Sequence record: CP128686.1
Source of the DNA: a plasmid
Length of the DNA: 64,000 nt
Reading direction: 5' to 3' (one strand)
Part shown: one piece after another, positions 9,001 through 18,000 of the stretch
Layout of the letters: every line of letters begins with the position of its first letter
Position numbering within the stretch: position 1 is the stretch's first letter
Made by a program: the position numbers

Positions 9001-12000
9001 CTGATAACTGAAATCGCCGGGAGAATGCTTAACAAGCTCAAGCAGCAATGCGCAAATATGTTCGAACGGCCAGCGCCTCCCACGTCCTGACGGCAATGAT
9101 TTCAGGCCTTCAGTACCAGACAGCGTGAACCAGTTAATCCAGCGACCAATCGATGAGCGGGCACAGCAGAGCGTTCTGGCAACATGACTGACGGTGTCAC
9201 CATGATGCAGCATCAGCATGGCGGTGAGCCGCCGGGCGAGGTTTTTGTCCTTTGTTTTATTGATATTTTTATCCATCAGGCGTCACTGGCTCTTGCCCGC
9301 ATATCAGCTGCATTATAGTACGGCATCAGGTAATTCCTTGATGGTTGTTATCCGCGATATCAGACCTGACGTCTATTTATTGGGCTGAATTTCCCGGATG
9401 CTGCTTAAATCACGGTGACGTGAACTCCAGACGCCGCTTCCGACCGCGGCACCGGTGGATTTTCTGAAGCGCAGGCCGCACTCACTGACCCACTGGGAAC
9501 TGGTTTCCCGCAGCCTGACTAAACGGGGTTGGTAGCATTCAGTAACGGTCCCGGTGTGAGTCATCTTCTTCTGCTTTTTCGTTTCATGGACATGGGTGAC
9601 CTTATCTGACGAACCATTCACCGCCCGGTCACGGTATTCAGTAGGGATCTCCATAGACAGGCGCAGAGGCAGGGCCCTGCCCTGCCCCGGGACGGGTAAC
9701 AGACTGTCCGCCGTGGCTTTCAGCCAGCCATACAGCTTATGACCATTACCCGGAATGCCATCAAGCGTCAGTTTACGCGCGGTGAAGCTCCCGTCCTGCC
9801 TTCGGACCTTCCGCAGGAAGGTACCCAGAGGCTTACCAGACTCAACCGGCTCCGCCACAATCTAGTCATACCCTGGAAACTGATCGAGCATCAGGTCGAT
9901 ATACTCCCAGTCGAGGACGACAATGACGTGGCCATGAATGTCAGGGCCGTCATTCCACTGTATGGCAATGACATAAGGGAACAGCATGTCGTCGTGAACT
10001 CAGAGATACTGAACTAGGCTCTAGCTGGCCAGTTCACAACTGCCGGCCGGAAATGGCTTCAGCCAGTCACGCCAGAGGGAAGGTACCGGCTCACCGGACC
10101 GTTCTCCGGCGGCCAGCTCCAGCGCCCGACGGAAGGCCTTCACACGGGCCCAGGTTTCCGCATTCATTTCTTTGCCTTCCCATCAGCACGCGCTAGGATC
10201 AGCAGGCTGAACGCGTCACGAATAACAACTCACTAGATACCATAGCCACCTGACTGCACAGGTAAATCAATGAATTCTGGCGGCCCGGCCAGTACCTTTG
10301 TCAGATCCAGCGGTAGATGTATGACATTGGTCATTCACCGGCTAGGTTCACAAAGGTGATCTGGTGTGGGAAAGCGGAGCGTTTTACCAGAAAATCAAAT
10401 ATAGTTGACAGGCAGGATATTACATATGGTCAACTCATGTGATCTGTATCTTATTATACGAAAAATGGAACTCATCTTAATATGTTGATATAAAATCACT
10501 TTATATTGAAAACCTCATATTATGGCACACTGCCTGCGGTAGATAGTGCTAACGAAAAGCAGCCACTGATGATTGGCTCCCATATTGACACCGTTGTAAA
10601 CGCCGGCGCTTTCGATGGTTGTTACGGTGTCCTGTCCGGCCTGGCTGTCGTCAGGGCTTTCAGAAAAGCCGGGATCAAACCTTCCCGCCCGATTACTGTC
10701 GGCGCATTCACAAACGAAGAGGGTATCCGTTATCAACCCGATATGATGGGATCGCTCGTCTATGCAGGGGGGATCTCGCTGAAGAAAATCCTGGACACTG
10801 TCGGCACTGATGGCACACGTCTGGGTGATGAGCTGCAGCGTATTGGCTATGCGGGAGACCTGGAGCCCGGCTCGATCGTCCCTCATGAATACATTGAACT
10901 GCACATCGAACAGGGACCTGTTCTTGAAGCCGAAGGGATCCAGATCGGTGCTGTCGAAAATCTTCAGGGAATTTCCTGGCAGGAAATCACCATCAAAGGC
11001 ACGGCAAACCATGCAGGCACCACGCCGACACGGCTACCCGTTCTTACGATCCGGCAGTCTAGGAAATGCTTGAAAAACGGATGCGTGTTATCTGTAATTC
11101 TGTTTGCGCAATGCACGAAGCAGAATGTGAATTCATTTACACACATGAGTTTTCACCTACAGTCGATCATCCGCGGGAAACTGCATATGCAATTGACGCA
11201 GCGGTTCGCGTATTCGGCGAAAAAAATGTGGATTCCACGGTGACGTGTTCATACTCAAATCTCCTGCAATATGGGAGATTTGAGTATGGTTGTACCTTGT
11301 GAGCGAACAGCGGGAATTCGCAAATGTTTCACATCTGATCAAGGCATTACTTAAAGGATGCTGTGGTAGCCAACGGGGAGCAGGTCAAAGCAATTACAAA
11401 TTGGTTTGAATTGCAACATCATGCAAATAAATGTTATGTTATCACATTACTTAAGTGGCATATACAGTGACATGAACAACAATCTTCCTTATCCAATACC
11501 TGTGCTTGATGTTAAAAGCGTCAGCATTTCTACGGGCCATTCTGCTCTGGTTAGCGATGTCAGCTTTCGGCTCCAACAAGGCGAGCGGGTCTGTATTATC
11601 GGCTCATCAGGGTCAGGTAAGTCTCTGACGGCAAAAGCCATTATAGGTACATTGTCTGCCGGGCTGTTATTACAAGGAAGCATTCGTATAAACGGTGCGG
11701 ATGTCGTTGGCCTTCATCCCACCCGGCGCCCTCAGCATGCGCTGGTATCCGCCATCTTTCAGGACTCTTCCACCGCGCTGAACCCGCTGATGCCGGTGGG
11801 GCGACAGCTTGCTCTGGCGTTGAAAACAGGTGATAACGCGATGCTGGGCTCTTTGCTGGATGCGCTACAGCTCAGCGATATCCCTCAATTTCTCTCCCGC
11901 TACCCGGCAGAGCTTTCCGGTGGGCAGCGTCAGCGGATTTGCATCGCGCTGGCGTTGCTGGGGAATAATCGCCTGCTGGTTGCTGATGAACCGACGACGG

Positions 12001-15000: not shown

Positions 15001-18000
15001 CGCGCTCGATCGCTTTGATGGCTACTGGGGCGAGAAGGCGAAAGCTAGCGGTATTGACGCAAGCTTTGTTCCGGACGGGGCCGCGCGCGCAGCCGCATTA
15101 CGTACTGGCACGGCGGATATCATTGAGGCAATTCCTGTGTCTCAGGCCCCGCTTCTGGATCAATCACTGGTTCATGAAGTCCCGATGCCGAGAACCAATA
15201 CGCTTTATCTCAATACGGCGCAGGGCGTGATGAAAGATCCAGCTATGCGAGCCGCAGTCCGTGACGTGATTAATCGTCAGCAGATTGTTGATAATGTCTA
15301 TGAGAAACGTGCCGACGTCGCGCAGGGGCTTCTGGGGCCAGCCTTGCCATGGGCCGCACCACTGCGCAAACCGGTGACCAACCCCGTTGCAGCGGGAAAA
15401 CCAGACGGGGCCACAATCACTCTGGCAACGTTCAGCGATCGTGCGGAATTGCCTGAAGTCGCGGTCTATCTTGCACAGCAGCTCATTGCCGCCGGGTTTA
15501 CCGTGAAACAAGTGGTCCGCGAGTATTCGCAGATTGAAGCTGATGCGCTGGCCGGAAAGTTTGATGCCTTTATTCTGTCGCGTGCAACCGTGCTGGATTC
15601 CGGTGACCCGGTTGCCTACATGTACAGCGATTTCGCCTGCGAAGGGTCGTTCAATATATCCCAGCTGTGCCGCCCGGAAATTGATGCAGCGCTGAAAAAA
15701 GCCCGTGAAACGCCAGCGGGTGAAACCCGACGTCAGGCCATTATGGACGCTGAAAACATGATCCTTGCCAGTGATGCTGCGATCCCAATACTACATGAGC
15801 GCGTCATTCAGGGAGAAAGTGCGGTAGTGAAAAATGCGCTCCGTGACCCTCGCGAGCGCACGCTCATCGACAGCCAGACCCAATTAGTCGCTGGCGAACA
15901 TACTACTGCTGCGCAGTAAAACAGGGGTTATTGATCAATGAGCGAATCGCTGTACTGCCGGACCTGCGCCAGGATCCATCGGGCAGGTAACCTGCCAAAA
16001 GGCTTAGTGGCAACGTTGCTGTCGCGGATAATTACGCTGACCGGTATTGTCGTGCTGATCGGGATGCTGCCTTGGGTATCGGGCCAGGATCCCGCCATGG
16101 CGCTGCTGAGAGCGCGTTCTGCCGAACAGGAAGCAACCCCGGAAGCATTAGCAGCGATTCGCCAGTCGCTGGGGTTCGATCAGGGCCCTGTGCAACTCCT
16201 GCTGCACTGGCTCAGCGGCCTCTTGCAGGGGGATGCAGGTAACTCTTGGATATCAGGGCGCCCGGTGCTGCCTGACATGATCCAGGCAGCCCAGGTGTCA
16301 CTGACGCTGATGCTGATGTCCGCCGTGGTGGCACTGCTGCTGGCGGCGATGATTTGCCTGCCGACATTCCGACGAGGCCTGCAGGGGCGGTCGTTTCGTT
16401 CGACGGGCTTTTTCGCGTCAGTATTCACCGCATTACCTGAATTTCTTCTGGCGTCATTCTTACTGGTCGTTGGGGCCGTCTGGCTGGAGTGGTTTCCTCC
16501 TTACGGCTGGAACGGCCTGCACTATGCGGTGCTGCCCGCGCTGGCAATGGGGATCCCGGCAGGTGGCTATCTGGGGCGGATATTCTCGGATGCTTTAGCG
16601 GCAACCTTTAGTGAAAACTGGATAATCACCTGGACCGTCTCCGGGATATCGCGTTGGCACATTACCTGCGCGGTACTTAAGCGAACGCTCTCCACCGTTA
16701 TGCCGTTAATTGGCCTGGTTTTGGTGTCATTGACGGGCAGTGCAGTGGCCGTGGAAAAGGTCTTCGCCATTCCGGGGCTCGGCAGGGCAACGCTCGGTGC
16801 CGTAGTTGCACAGGATCTTCCGGCGCTGCAAATGGGCGTGCTCTTCCTGCTCATCATTGCATTTATGTTCGGAATGCTGTGTGCGGGGATCAGATACCTC
16901 ATTCTGGGGCGGGCGTTACGCACGTCCTCTCTGCCGGTCACCAATGAACCTGACGGAAAAAGCGGGAAATTGTCGCTGTTGCTTCCGTTCGCCTGTGGCG
17001 TTGCGTTGGTCGTGCTTCTGCTTATTGGTCTGCCCCGTGATCCTTACTCGTCTGAGTTTATGCGACTGGCTCATCCTTCCTTTTCGCTGCCCTTTGGGGC
17101 CGATGCCATGGGGCGTGATTTGCTGGCCAGAGTGGCCTACGGCACAGTGCATACCTGCATGCTGGCGCTGATGGTGTCGCTTATTTGTCTGCTACTGGGG
17201 CTGGTTATTGGTCTTTTCCCCAGGGTATTTGTGGGACCGACAGAGATGGCAAATGCGCTGCCTCCGGTGATTGCGGGCTTACTGGTGGTTTCCATCAGTG
17301 GCCCCGGCAGTTTAGGTGCGGCCATTGCGATTGCAGCAGTAGGCTGGGCGCCTCTTGCCACACATACCGCGGCGCTGGCGACAGAAATTCGCGCCAGACC
17401 TTATATCAACATGCTTCCTGTTCTGGGGGTTGGCTGGCTACGTCAGAATCTGTTTTACATTTTTCCGGCACTAATTGGCCCTCTCTTTCGTCATGCTATG
17501 CTGCGCTTACCGGGGATCGCCCTAGCTTTGGCTTCACTGGGTTTTCTCGGGCTGGGCGCATCACCGCCGGAGCCGGAATGGGGAAGGGTACTTGCGGAAG
17601 GAATGCCTTATCTGGAGCGCGCCTATTGGGTCGTTCTGGCACCTGCAGTCGCCCTTGCCGTTTTGTCGGTGATGGGCGTGAGTCTGGCCGGTCTGACGGG
17701 TCAAAAAAAGTAAAAGCGTTCCATACGTTGCTATCACTATGACTGCAATGTCGAACACCTTTAAACACGTGATTCTGTTACCAGGATTAAGTCGAGATTA
17801 TTTTGAAATAACTCTGCACACTTTTTCACCGAAATTATGCTGGTGCCCATCGTCGGGCGAAGTTAGACTGAAATGTTGAGTTAAACAAGGGGGCAAAAAT
17901 GAAAGTGTTAAGTATTGTCGGGGCAACGCTGTTGGTCACGTCATTCCATGCTGCCGCATTTGTTTCTGTATCGCCGGTGCCTGCGGGGCAAAATGCGAAC

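Follow-up and report, generated by a model that had tools for sequence, protein, structure and literature searches.

We describe a five-gene operon (11472-17713) on a 64,000-nucleotide (nt) stretch of the plasmid sequence CP128686.1; this stretch is hereafter the window, and coordinates refer to it unless another locus is named. The operon encodes two ATP-binding cassette (ABC) ATPases, a transporter of the major facilitator superfamily (MFS), a substrate-binding lipoprotein and a fused permease, and is preceded by a conserved match to the operator of the zinc repressor Zur. The explanation that we favor, with a probability of roughly 55% based on sequence comparison, is that the operon encodes a Zur-repressed importer of zinc in complex with a small ligand, with the MFS pump secreting or recycling a common metabolite that serves as this ligand. 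That the operon serves the acquisition of a metal, most likely zinc, appears likely.

Operon structure and the predicted Zur operator

An earlier reading of the DNA (the original prediction) proposed the gene order ATPase-ATPase-MFS-binding protein-fused permease, with an MFS exporter embedded in an importer operon of Dpp/Nik type. The list of open reading frames (ORFs) and hidden Markov model (HMM) scans with Pfam and NCBIfam bear this out, the importer being of Nik/Opp type and the MFS protein of efflux type. The features of the operon and its upstream region are:

11411-11416, + strand: probable -35 hexamer TTGCAA, read by eye; in most Enterobacterales orthologues, a conserved TTGCA(A/T) precedes the box by 15 nt
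11432-11446, + strand: Zur box TGTTATGTTATCACA, a pattern match conserved before orthologues, overlapping a TGnTATGTT extended -10 (11432-11440)
11472-12281, + strand: ABC ATPase 1, NikD/CntD/OppD-like, 269 amino acids (aa) (Pfam ABC_tran; in NCBIfam, 187 bits for nikD and 183 bits for CntD, each below cutoff)
12278-13111, + strand: ABC ATPase 2, NikE-like, 277 aa (NCBIfam NikE 186 bits, cutoff 354), with a 4-nt overlap with ATPase 1
13138-14382, + strand: MFS transporter of the DHA1 drug/H+ antiporter type, a relative of EitD, 414 aa (Pfam MFS_1; NCBIfam MdtH 135 bits, cutoff 469)
14393-15919, + strand: family-5 (cluster C) substrate-binding lipoprotein, 508 aa, lipobox LLLTGC (Pfam SBP_bac_5; Opp5A_nikA 193 bits, cutoff 600)
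15938-17713, + strand: fused permease, 591 aa, NikB-like over residues 27-314 and NikC-like over 367-585 (two BPD_transp_1 domains; NCBIfam Opp1B/NikB for the N-terminal half, Opp2C/NikC for the C-terminal half)

The gaps between the five co-directional genes are -4, 26, 10 and 18 nt, so they form one transcription unit with no space for internal promoters. The true start of ATPase 1 is ATG 11472, as called by the Prokaryotic Genome Annotation Pipeline (PGAP), and the N-terminal codons are conserved in Kluyvera, Pantoea and Erwiniaceae; a mechanical ORF call began at TTG 11406. All four importer components score highest against Nik-family models in NCBIfam, the two fused permease domains and the two ATPases matching NikB/Opp1B, NikC/Opp2C, NikD and NikE best. 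Every one of the HMM scores lies below the curated equivalog cutoff, and therefore none of the five proteins is the equivalog of a named protein. The fusion of the permease is kept in all homologous loci. Consensus scans for terminators and promoters at the start and end of the operon gave nothing above threshold.

The Zur box ends 25 nt before the ATG of ATPase 1, and the 23-mer TAAATGTTATGTTATCACATTAC agrees with the gamma-proteobacterial Zur consensus GAAATGTTATAATATAACATTTC at 18 of 23 positions. Allowing at most 2 mismatches, the pattern TGTTATNNTATAACA matches 10 times in the window at 5 distinct sites (both strands, overlapping hits counted), while the shuffled window gives a mean of 1.17 matches and none of 100 shuffles reached 10. 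The five sites are at 1453, 7289, 11432, 53686 and 57076, and four of them directly precede genes with a zinc-starvation flavor. For conservation, we used 80 loci encoding relatives of the binding protein (62 proteobacterial; 75 scored for the MFS gene) and counted boxes that matched at least 11 of 13 positions within -150 to +10 of the first ATPase gene. Such a box is present in 61 of the 62 proteobacterial loci, with a background of 0.0035 sites per 160 nt in the same loci; the sole exception, a Rhizobium locus, matches at 10/13. These loci are related by descent, yet the sequence flanking the box is not conserved between genera, except for the TTGCA(A/T) of most Enterobacterales. This element and the box together read TTGCAA-N15-TGtTATGTT, i.e., a -35 plus an extended -10 overlapped by the box. 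At the equivalent place, most actinobacterial orthologues have AT-rich palindromes of the Fur-family type (TCGACAACGATTGTCGA in four Rhodococcus loci; TGgAAATGATTGTCA in Saccharothrix, Lentzea and Kribbella; GCGAATGATTATTGATA in Arthrobacter), which may belong to Zur. The upstream element fitting the Zur consensus, as originally claimed, thus stands up to the consensus match, the shuffles and the comparison of loci, and the operon is very probably under Zur control. The literature searched contains no expression data for genes of the plasmid.

No NikR operator (GTATGA-N16-TCATAC) is present in the upstream region of the operon, and the window annotation includes no NikR-like gene. Control by NikR through the only inverted repeat upstream (11233-11271) was considered and rejected, as its half-sites have the wrong order and orientation. 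This perfect 15-bp repeat (CATACTCAAATCTCC...GGAGATTTGAGTATG) is part of a 73-bp stretch (11233-11305) directly after an M20 peptidase remnant. The stretch matches about 740 E. coli chromosomes, mostly at single places and with 95-99% identity; the one E. coli copy inspected has no annotated feature there.

The cassette, its binding protein and its pump

Pectobacterium, Brenneria, Rahnella, Kluyvera, Citrobacter and Arthrobacter share the gene order ATPase-ATPase-(MFS)-binding protein-fused permease, and in Rhodococcus the MFS gene comes after the permease gene. Serratia, Erwinia/Winslowiella, Tatumella, Vibrio, Marinomonas, Halomonas/Vreelandella and Kushneria have the cassette without the MFS gene. 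The lack of adjacent biosynthetic genes that had been remarked on for the plasmid extends to all of the ~80 loci, which come from at least two phyla (Enterobacterales, Vibrio, Halomonas, Marinomonas, Rhizobium and Actinobacteria), and clustering of flanking ORFs revealed no family common across genera beyond the cassette's own four. A search of the replicon for cntL/cntM-like genes, as the original prediction had suggested, was negative: neither a nicotianamine-synthase-like protein (CntL) nor an opine dehydrogenase (CntM) is among the PGAP product names of the complete sister plasmid taken as representative.

Candidate chelator genes beside individual copies were rejected. In Saccharothrix, Lentzea and Kribbella, large ORFs beside the cassette encode DUF6531, NB-ARC/WD40, subtilase, glycosyl hydrolase, MMPL and FolD proteins (the simple ORF caller used on the flanks is unreliable in high-GC DNA). 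The nearest neighbors in Rahnella, Serratia, Halomonas and Vibrio encode an EamA transporter, an exoribonuclease-like protein, a TonB-dependent receptor, a fused iron-type alcohol dehydrogenase/phosphate propanoyltransferase (PTAC), CstA, a Cu/Zn superoxide dismutase and a GNAT protein; all are genus-specific and none is a plausible chelator synthase.

Some copies have further features nearby. In Rahnella (loci L030-L040, L045 and L054 of our sample; ~13295-14242), an EamA-family gene lies directly 3' of the permease gene, in addition to the MFS gene. Serratia copies (L048, 4620-6890), which have no MFS gene, show a TonB-dependent receptor gene upstream on the opposite strand. Pectobacterium, Samsonia and Brenneria (L013, L015, L016, L018-L022, L024 and L025; ~15000-17400) have more strong Zur boxes 2-4 kb downstream, past an AMP nucleosidase gene, and therefore other genes, predicted to be Zur-regulated, cluster near the cassette in these chromosomes. 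In Vibrio olivae (L006, 7356-8349), a GNAT gene is located immediately upstream of the cassette, with adjacent Zur boxes at 8308 and 8330 between them. The top Zur-repressed genes of K. pneumoniae KPNIH1 likewise include one for a GNAT protein, in a study of Zur that used KPNIH1 and its derivative MKP103 (bioRxiv 10.64898/2026.09.26.754270). The same preprint gives the names znuCBA and zniCBA to high-affinity zinc ABC importers of the chromosome.

Among solved structures, the binding protein is closest in sequence to B. halodurans 3t66 (1e-31), S. aureus NikA (4ofj and 3rqt, 1e-23) and 5u4o; weaker matches are AccA, GsiB and E. coli NikA (1e-18), then DppA, with CntA at 1e-12. A Foldseek search with its AlphaFold model (predicted local distance difference test score 82.9) ranks 5u4o, 3rqt, 3t66 and 4xkr first, followed by GsiB and DppA, and puts CntA 38th; the scores differ little and all identities are 18-25%. 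The title of one Protein Data Bank entry among these matches indicates S. aureus NikA with a metal-ligand complex. The NCBIfam scores (with cutoffs) are 193 (600) bits for Opp5A_nikA, 94 (393) for the NikA model TIGR02294 and 61.6 (800) for the CntA model NF047575, and for the peptide binders 62.5 (1005) for DppA, 26.7 (947) for OppA and 90 (594) for GsiB. An assignment as NikA-type equivalog was therefore rejected on both NikA models, and membership of the Cnt systems on the CntA score, the fold rank and the lack of annotated cntL/cntM. The protein also does not group with peptide binders; firm clustering with them, together with expression that does not respond to metal limitation, is what the original prediction had named as fatal to its metallophore reading. 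Nor is it a NikA, CntA or DppA, three of the proteins named there for comparison: judged by its sequence and predicted fold, the binding protein is a separate subfamily of cluster-C binding proteins whose nearest relatives are the Firmicute NikA proteins.

E. coli NikA can be aligned only over the N-terminal half of the binding protein (26% identity), and its chelate-binding residues Arg97, Trp100 and Arg137 have no residue-for-residue match, although an invariant PKPRILDG loop occupies the Arg97 region. Within the family, identity is 60-90% from Enterobacterales to Arthrobacter and Rhodococcus, with ~190 near-invariant positions, and the lipobox Cys is retained in 93% of 83 homologues, Gram-negative and Gram-positive alike. 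The invariant positions include K129, R131, R162, one Cys pair and only two His (H106 and H468), with no His-rich loop, which would favor one fixed small ligand-metal complex over a bare ion. That the substrate is a chelate seems reasonably probable.

The pump carries MFS motif A (GGALTDRFGGR) and a motif-C-like GSVIGPLLGALL GP segment, and its nearest solved structures are the efflux pump NorA and then the MFS transporter YajR. The efflux-type sequence and the proximity to NorA make an outward direction likely. Its cargo is less secure, and the odds that it exports or recycles the ligand are slightly under even. PGAP calls it an MDR-family MFS transporter; a PADLOC scan of the pump gave no match.

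Linkage between pump and cassette extends over Enterobacterales, Arthrobacter and Rhodococcus, and the pump is 68% identical over 396 residues to the product of the fourth gene of a verified eitABCD cassette. Close homologues (68-71% identity) occur outside the Nik-type cassette in Enterobacter, Serratia marcescens, Raoultella, Siccibacter and Kosakonia, where they always adjoin a FecCD-type ABC importer. In Enterobacter asburiae, the binding protein of this importer clears the EitA model (690 bits, cutoff 640); the four genes are therefore eitABCD and the pump homologue is EitD. The Eit and Eit-like clusters have no Zur box; a site conserved in them agrees with the Fur consensus at 14 of 19 positions and is a putative Fur box. 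One Enterobacter sp. joins an Eit-like importer and pump to a Zur box followed by Nik-type genes. In Raoultella (2318-12379 of its locus), eitABCD is inserted in an Opp-like operon, between the first and second permease genes, which indicates that the cassette moves as a unit.

The zinc-starvation island of the plasmid

The window derives from a hypervirulence plasmid of the pLVPK/pK2044 type, as judged from the presence of fecIRA, iroBCDN and peg-344-type genes and from plasmid matches. Many K. pneumoniae virulence plasmids, and E. coli transconjugants of these, match a 7-kb query from the operon region at 100% identity. The query finds 497 plasmid records, of which 467 have a Klebsiella source, 478 show a query coverage of at least 80% and 483 an identity of at least 99%.

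Based on the annotation of the sister plasmid, the operon is the last unit of a ~30-kb zinc-starvation island. The order is hemB (disrupted), dihydroorotase, M14 peptidase, threonyl-tRNA synthetase remnant, carbonic anhydrase, folE2, dksA, CobW GTPase, a Fur-family regulator, cysS, flavin oxidoreductase, FeoB-like protein, zigA, hisI, a second Fur-family regulator, an IS630 element, the M20 peptidase remnant and then the five-gene operon. The Zur-regulon paralogues among these (hemB2, pyrC2, cam, folE2, dksA2, cobW, cysS2, zigA and hisI2) substantiate the zinc-starvation setting. Haas et al. 2009 catalogued these Zur-regulated paralogues and predicted Zur sites on pLVPK at hisI2-yciC and dksA2-folE2-cam (PMC2770081). 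The ABC-MFS operon and its box are not among the pLVPK sites in the parts of that paper on COG0523 proteins and enzyme paralogues (PMC2770081). Other Zur-linked features of the window are:

1453-4277, + strand: Zur-box-like site (1453-1467, CGTTATGTTATAACG), flavin oxidoreductase gene (1487-2617) and gene for a FeoB-like GTPase/Gate protein (2628-4277)
5743-7269, - strand: hisI2 (6868-7269) and zigA (5743-6831) (Pfam PRA-CH and cobW/CobW_C)
7289-7303: second Zur box, between hisI2-zigA (- strand) and the gene for a Zur-like regulator (+ strand); it is the LV196 hisI2-yciC site in supplementary file 5 of PMC2770081
7414-7914, + strand: the plasmid Fur-family regulator nearest to Zur (Pfam FUR; NCBIfam Zur 84.8 bits, cutoff 167)
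53686-53700, + strand: the best Zur box of the window (13/13 positions), preceding the FecCD-type importer
54141-56950, + strand: FecCD-type ABC importer with ATPase (54141-54968), binding protein (54987-55946) and permease (55916-56950)

Of the two Fur-family regulators encoded on the plasmid, one is at 7414-7914 and the other directly upstream of the window. With regulators of its own, including one whose divergent promoter contains a Zur box, the plasmid may partly govern its zinc island. An IS5 element (transposase 4734-5702) cuts the 3' end of zigA, which encodes 362 aa here and 406 aa on other plasmids; the zinc metallochaperone ZigA is thus probably truncated in this copy. The oxidoreductase (1487-2617) is a Pyr_redox_3 protein (YpdA-like at 76 bits) and the FeoB-like protein (549 aa) has N-terminal GTPase and Gate domains. 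This pair is also conserved in the Kluyvera island and could be an unrecognized zinc-starvation transporter-reductase pair.

On a Kluyvera chromosomal contig, the cassette is accompanied by cysS2, the genes for the oxidoreductase and the FeoB-like protein, zigA, hisI2 and the gene for a Zur-like regulator. Protein identity to the plasmid is 86-96% for most of these (63% for the regulator), and this near-identical core suggests that a chromosome of this kind was probably the source of the plasmid island. Two kinds of gene downstream of the operon (18714-20029), cyclophilin-like and aldo/keto reductase, were rejected as members; because a Tn3 remnant lies between and they are absent from the Kluyvera island, they fall outside the system.

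The binding protein of the FecCD-type importer (54987-55946) is distantly EitA-like (90.7 bits, 28% identity). The block has a further box-like site at 57076, and beyond the importer, on the - strand, are genes for an S-adenosylmethionine-dependent methyltransferase (57613-58320), a COG0523 GTPase (58672-59964) and a peptide deformylase (def) paralogue (61513-62022). On the sister plasmid, the block corresponding to 53686-62022 also holds a gene for a lysozyme inhibitor and remnants of two others, hisI and a GTPase gene. Type I-E CRISPR-Cas remnants (a Cas6/Cse3-like gene and a DEAD/ResIII helicase fragment) adjoin an IS5 element at 49269-50800.

Explanations and comparison with known systems

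Under the zinc-ligand explanation, zinc-loaded Zur would occupy the box over the extended -10 and block transcription when zinc is sufficient; the repressor would be the chromosomal Zur, possibly aided by the Zur-like regulators of the plasmid. When zinc is scarce, the five genes would be expressed from one transcript. The lipid-anchored binding protein would then capture zinc complexed with a small organic ligand, by analogy with Firmicute NikA proteins, which handle nickel-histidine or similar complexes, and the fused permease and two ATPases would pump the zinc-ligand complex into the cell. Working outward, the MFS pump would secrete the ligand or return it once the metal is released. Since no ligand-making enzyme accompanies the cassette in any genome examined, the ligand would most likely be a common metabolite (histidine, cysteine or a simple derivative) or an environmental compound. 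One pump family stands beside either kind of metal-chelate importer, with putative zinc- or iron-type control, and never beside biosynthesis, which makes a model of secretion or recycling and reimport the simplest.

Several points weigh against this explanation. The HMM resemblances of the importer all point to nickel systems, and we infer zinc from regulation and context. The MFS gene is present in only 37 of 75 orthologous cassettes; with about half lacking a pump, import is independent of it, and the pump could have an unrelated role. The lipobox of the signal peptide (encoded at 14393-14470) is followed by an invariant Phe-Asn-Glu, so that the +2 residue is Phe and not Asp. In E. coli, the lack of Asp at +2 predicts anchoring of a lipoprotein in the outer membrane, and such predicted anchoring would be unusual for the binding protein of an ABC system and awkward for docking with an inner-membrane permease. 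A consensus promoter scanner that needs 9/12 called no promoter at the start of the operon, where TTGCAA plus TATGTT give 8/12, and the promoter is thus deduced from conservation. Finally, EitABCD, the other home of the pump, has been called an iron system since its discovery and gave no phenotype on chrome azurol S agar or in iron-limited growth (PMC3251573).

Alternatively, the operon could be a piracy module that imports zinc bound to foreign opine metallophores, plant nicotianamine or other chelators, with the pump merely expelling emptied ligand. We consider this unlikely, even though no biosynthetic genes are annotated on the representative plasmid or beside any orthologue, the cassette occurs commonly among plant-associated genera (Pectobacterium, Brenneria, Dickeya, Erwinia, Rahnella and Rhizobium), and the gene arrangement is similar to that of the transport half of the S. 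aureus cnt locus (PMC7438024). Pure piracy sits oddly with a dedicated exporter, the binding protein is far from CntA, and the cassette is also found in marine/halophilic bacteria and soil actinobacteria, while the 60-90% identity of the binding protein across phyla argues for a single ubiquitous ligand rather than varied foreign ones. The idea of a cheater, or of biosynthesis encoded elsewhere, in the original prediction keeps the support of the missing biosynthetic neighbors; it is weakened because their lack is a constant property of the cassette in ~80 loci and not a peculiarity of the plasmid. An opine metallophore as the ligand is improbable.

Another reading, a nickel or cobalt importer placed under Zur to supply a substitute metal or sustain nickel enzymes during zinc scarcity, would fit the best matches of the four importer components (Nik-family models) and the fact that the nearest solved relatives bind nickel. 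It is distinctly unlikely in view of scores that all lie far below the family cutoffs, the lack of a NikR gene or NikR-type operator nearby (the 11233-11271 repeat being wrongly oriented), an operator that is a Zur box in proteobacteria and a Fur-family-type palindrome in most actinobacteria, and neighbors that are zinc-sparing paralogues. Import of peptides or amino acids to offset the metabolic damage of zinc starvation, with an unrelated drug-efflux pump as a passenger, is very improbable: peptides are frequent ligands of family-5 binding proteins, the fold matches include GsiB and DppA and the pump is annotated as an MDR-family protein, but DppA and OppA score much lower than the Nik models, and the pump is linked to the cassette in distant phyla and elsewhere only to FecCD-type metal-chelate importers. 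A fortuitous match, or a relic without regulatory function on the plasmid, is effectively excluded as an account of the box; although the scanner found no strong promoter and the support for the box comes from sequence, such an account is contradicted by the enrichment in the window and by the almost universal presence of the box at a constant spacing to the first gene, where flanks diverge.

The zinc-ligand explanation can be extended to a more speculative one, which we regard as doubtful, in which the Nik-type and Eit cassettes share a 'biosynthesis-free metallophore' strategy. An EitD-family pump would secrete a primary metabolite (e.g., histidine, cysteine or a spontaneous derivative) as a broad-spectrum chelator, and interchangeable Nik-type (Zur) or FecCD-type (Fur) importers would retrieve the zinc or iron complex. 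If so, K. pneumoniae would have a portable route around zinc withholding by the host, and the kinship of the pump would tie the long-unexplained EitABCD to the same logic. Zinc import alone, if true, would let the plasmid counter nutritional immunity of the calprotectin type and make the operon a candidate factor in virulence or fitness. This plasmid defines hypervirulent K. pneumoniae, and attention has so far been on siderophores and mucoid regulators; the literature searched describes no plasmid zinc-uptake system in hypervirulent Klebsiella. With its unusually high identity across phyla and no chelator-making genes, the cassette is a test case for metal scavenging with ordinary metabolites. 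New here are the recognition of this widely mobile cassette, its conserved operator across phyla, the constant lack of biosynthetic genes and the identity of the pump with EitD. It is not a new category, since bioinformatics had already pointed to the island in 2009 and other importers of Nik/Opp type under Zur regulation are known.

The operon shares with S. aureus CntABCDF-CntE an Opp/Nik importer and an MFS protein of exporter type in one locus under zinc control, which for our operon is predicted; the S. aureus locus takes up zinc under nutritional immunity (PMC5666155, PMC7438024). It also displays the combination of an Opp/Nik- or FecCD-type importer with an MFS or EamA exporter under zinc control that is drawn from the survey of opine zincophore clusters (PMC7438024), the main text of which mentions neither Klebsiella nor Pectobacterium nor Rahnella. 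The Cnt-like metallophore architecture of the original prediction is accordingly retained for the importer, the MFS gene and the zinc-type control; it fails for the binding protein, which is not CntA-like, and for the missing cntK, cntL and cntM, and the pump belongs to the EitD family and matches no CntE model in NCBIfam. The likeness to yersinopine systems falls away, as that system combines a FecCD-type importer with an EamA exporter (PMC7438024).

S. aureus NikA (Opp5A) and its Firmicute relatives (4ofj/4xkr, 3rqt, 3t66 and 5u4o) are the nearest binding proteins and resemble ours in being lipoproteins that work with Nik-type permeases and ATPases. The operon differs from the S. aureus NikA system in a sequence identity of only 21-25% (193 bits, cutoff 600), a Zur box instead of nickel control, fused permeases and an embedded MFS gene. 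According to Lebrette et al. 2015, S. aureus NikA reportedly binds metal with free histidine or a spontaneously formed thiazolidine, with no dedicated biosynthesis required.

The general kind of system is known, because Zur-controlled cluster-C (nickel/dipeptide-type) ABC importers are documented in P. denitrificans (pden1338-1344, with Zur control of pden1341-1344 supported by RNA-seq and electrophoretic mobility shift assay; PMC5387054) and experimentally in C. diphtheriae (dip2162-2165; PMC6711530). These have separate permease genes and no MFS gene, and are likened to the operon by class and Zur control. The Zur-regulated paralogue cluster of pLVPK, as reported in Haas et al. 2009, is the same plasmid island (PMC2770081). 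EitABCD, a putative ABC system for iron that is encoded on ColV-type and other enterobacterial plasmids as well as chromosomes, has a FecCD-type permease, a Peripla_BP_2 binding protein and a Fur-box-like site, whereas our operon has BPD_transp_1 and SBP_bac_5 domains and a Zur box. Both are nevertheless self-contained combinations of an importer and an MFS pump, without biosynthetic or outer-membrane genes, that are mobile and plasmid-borne.

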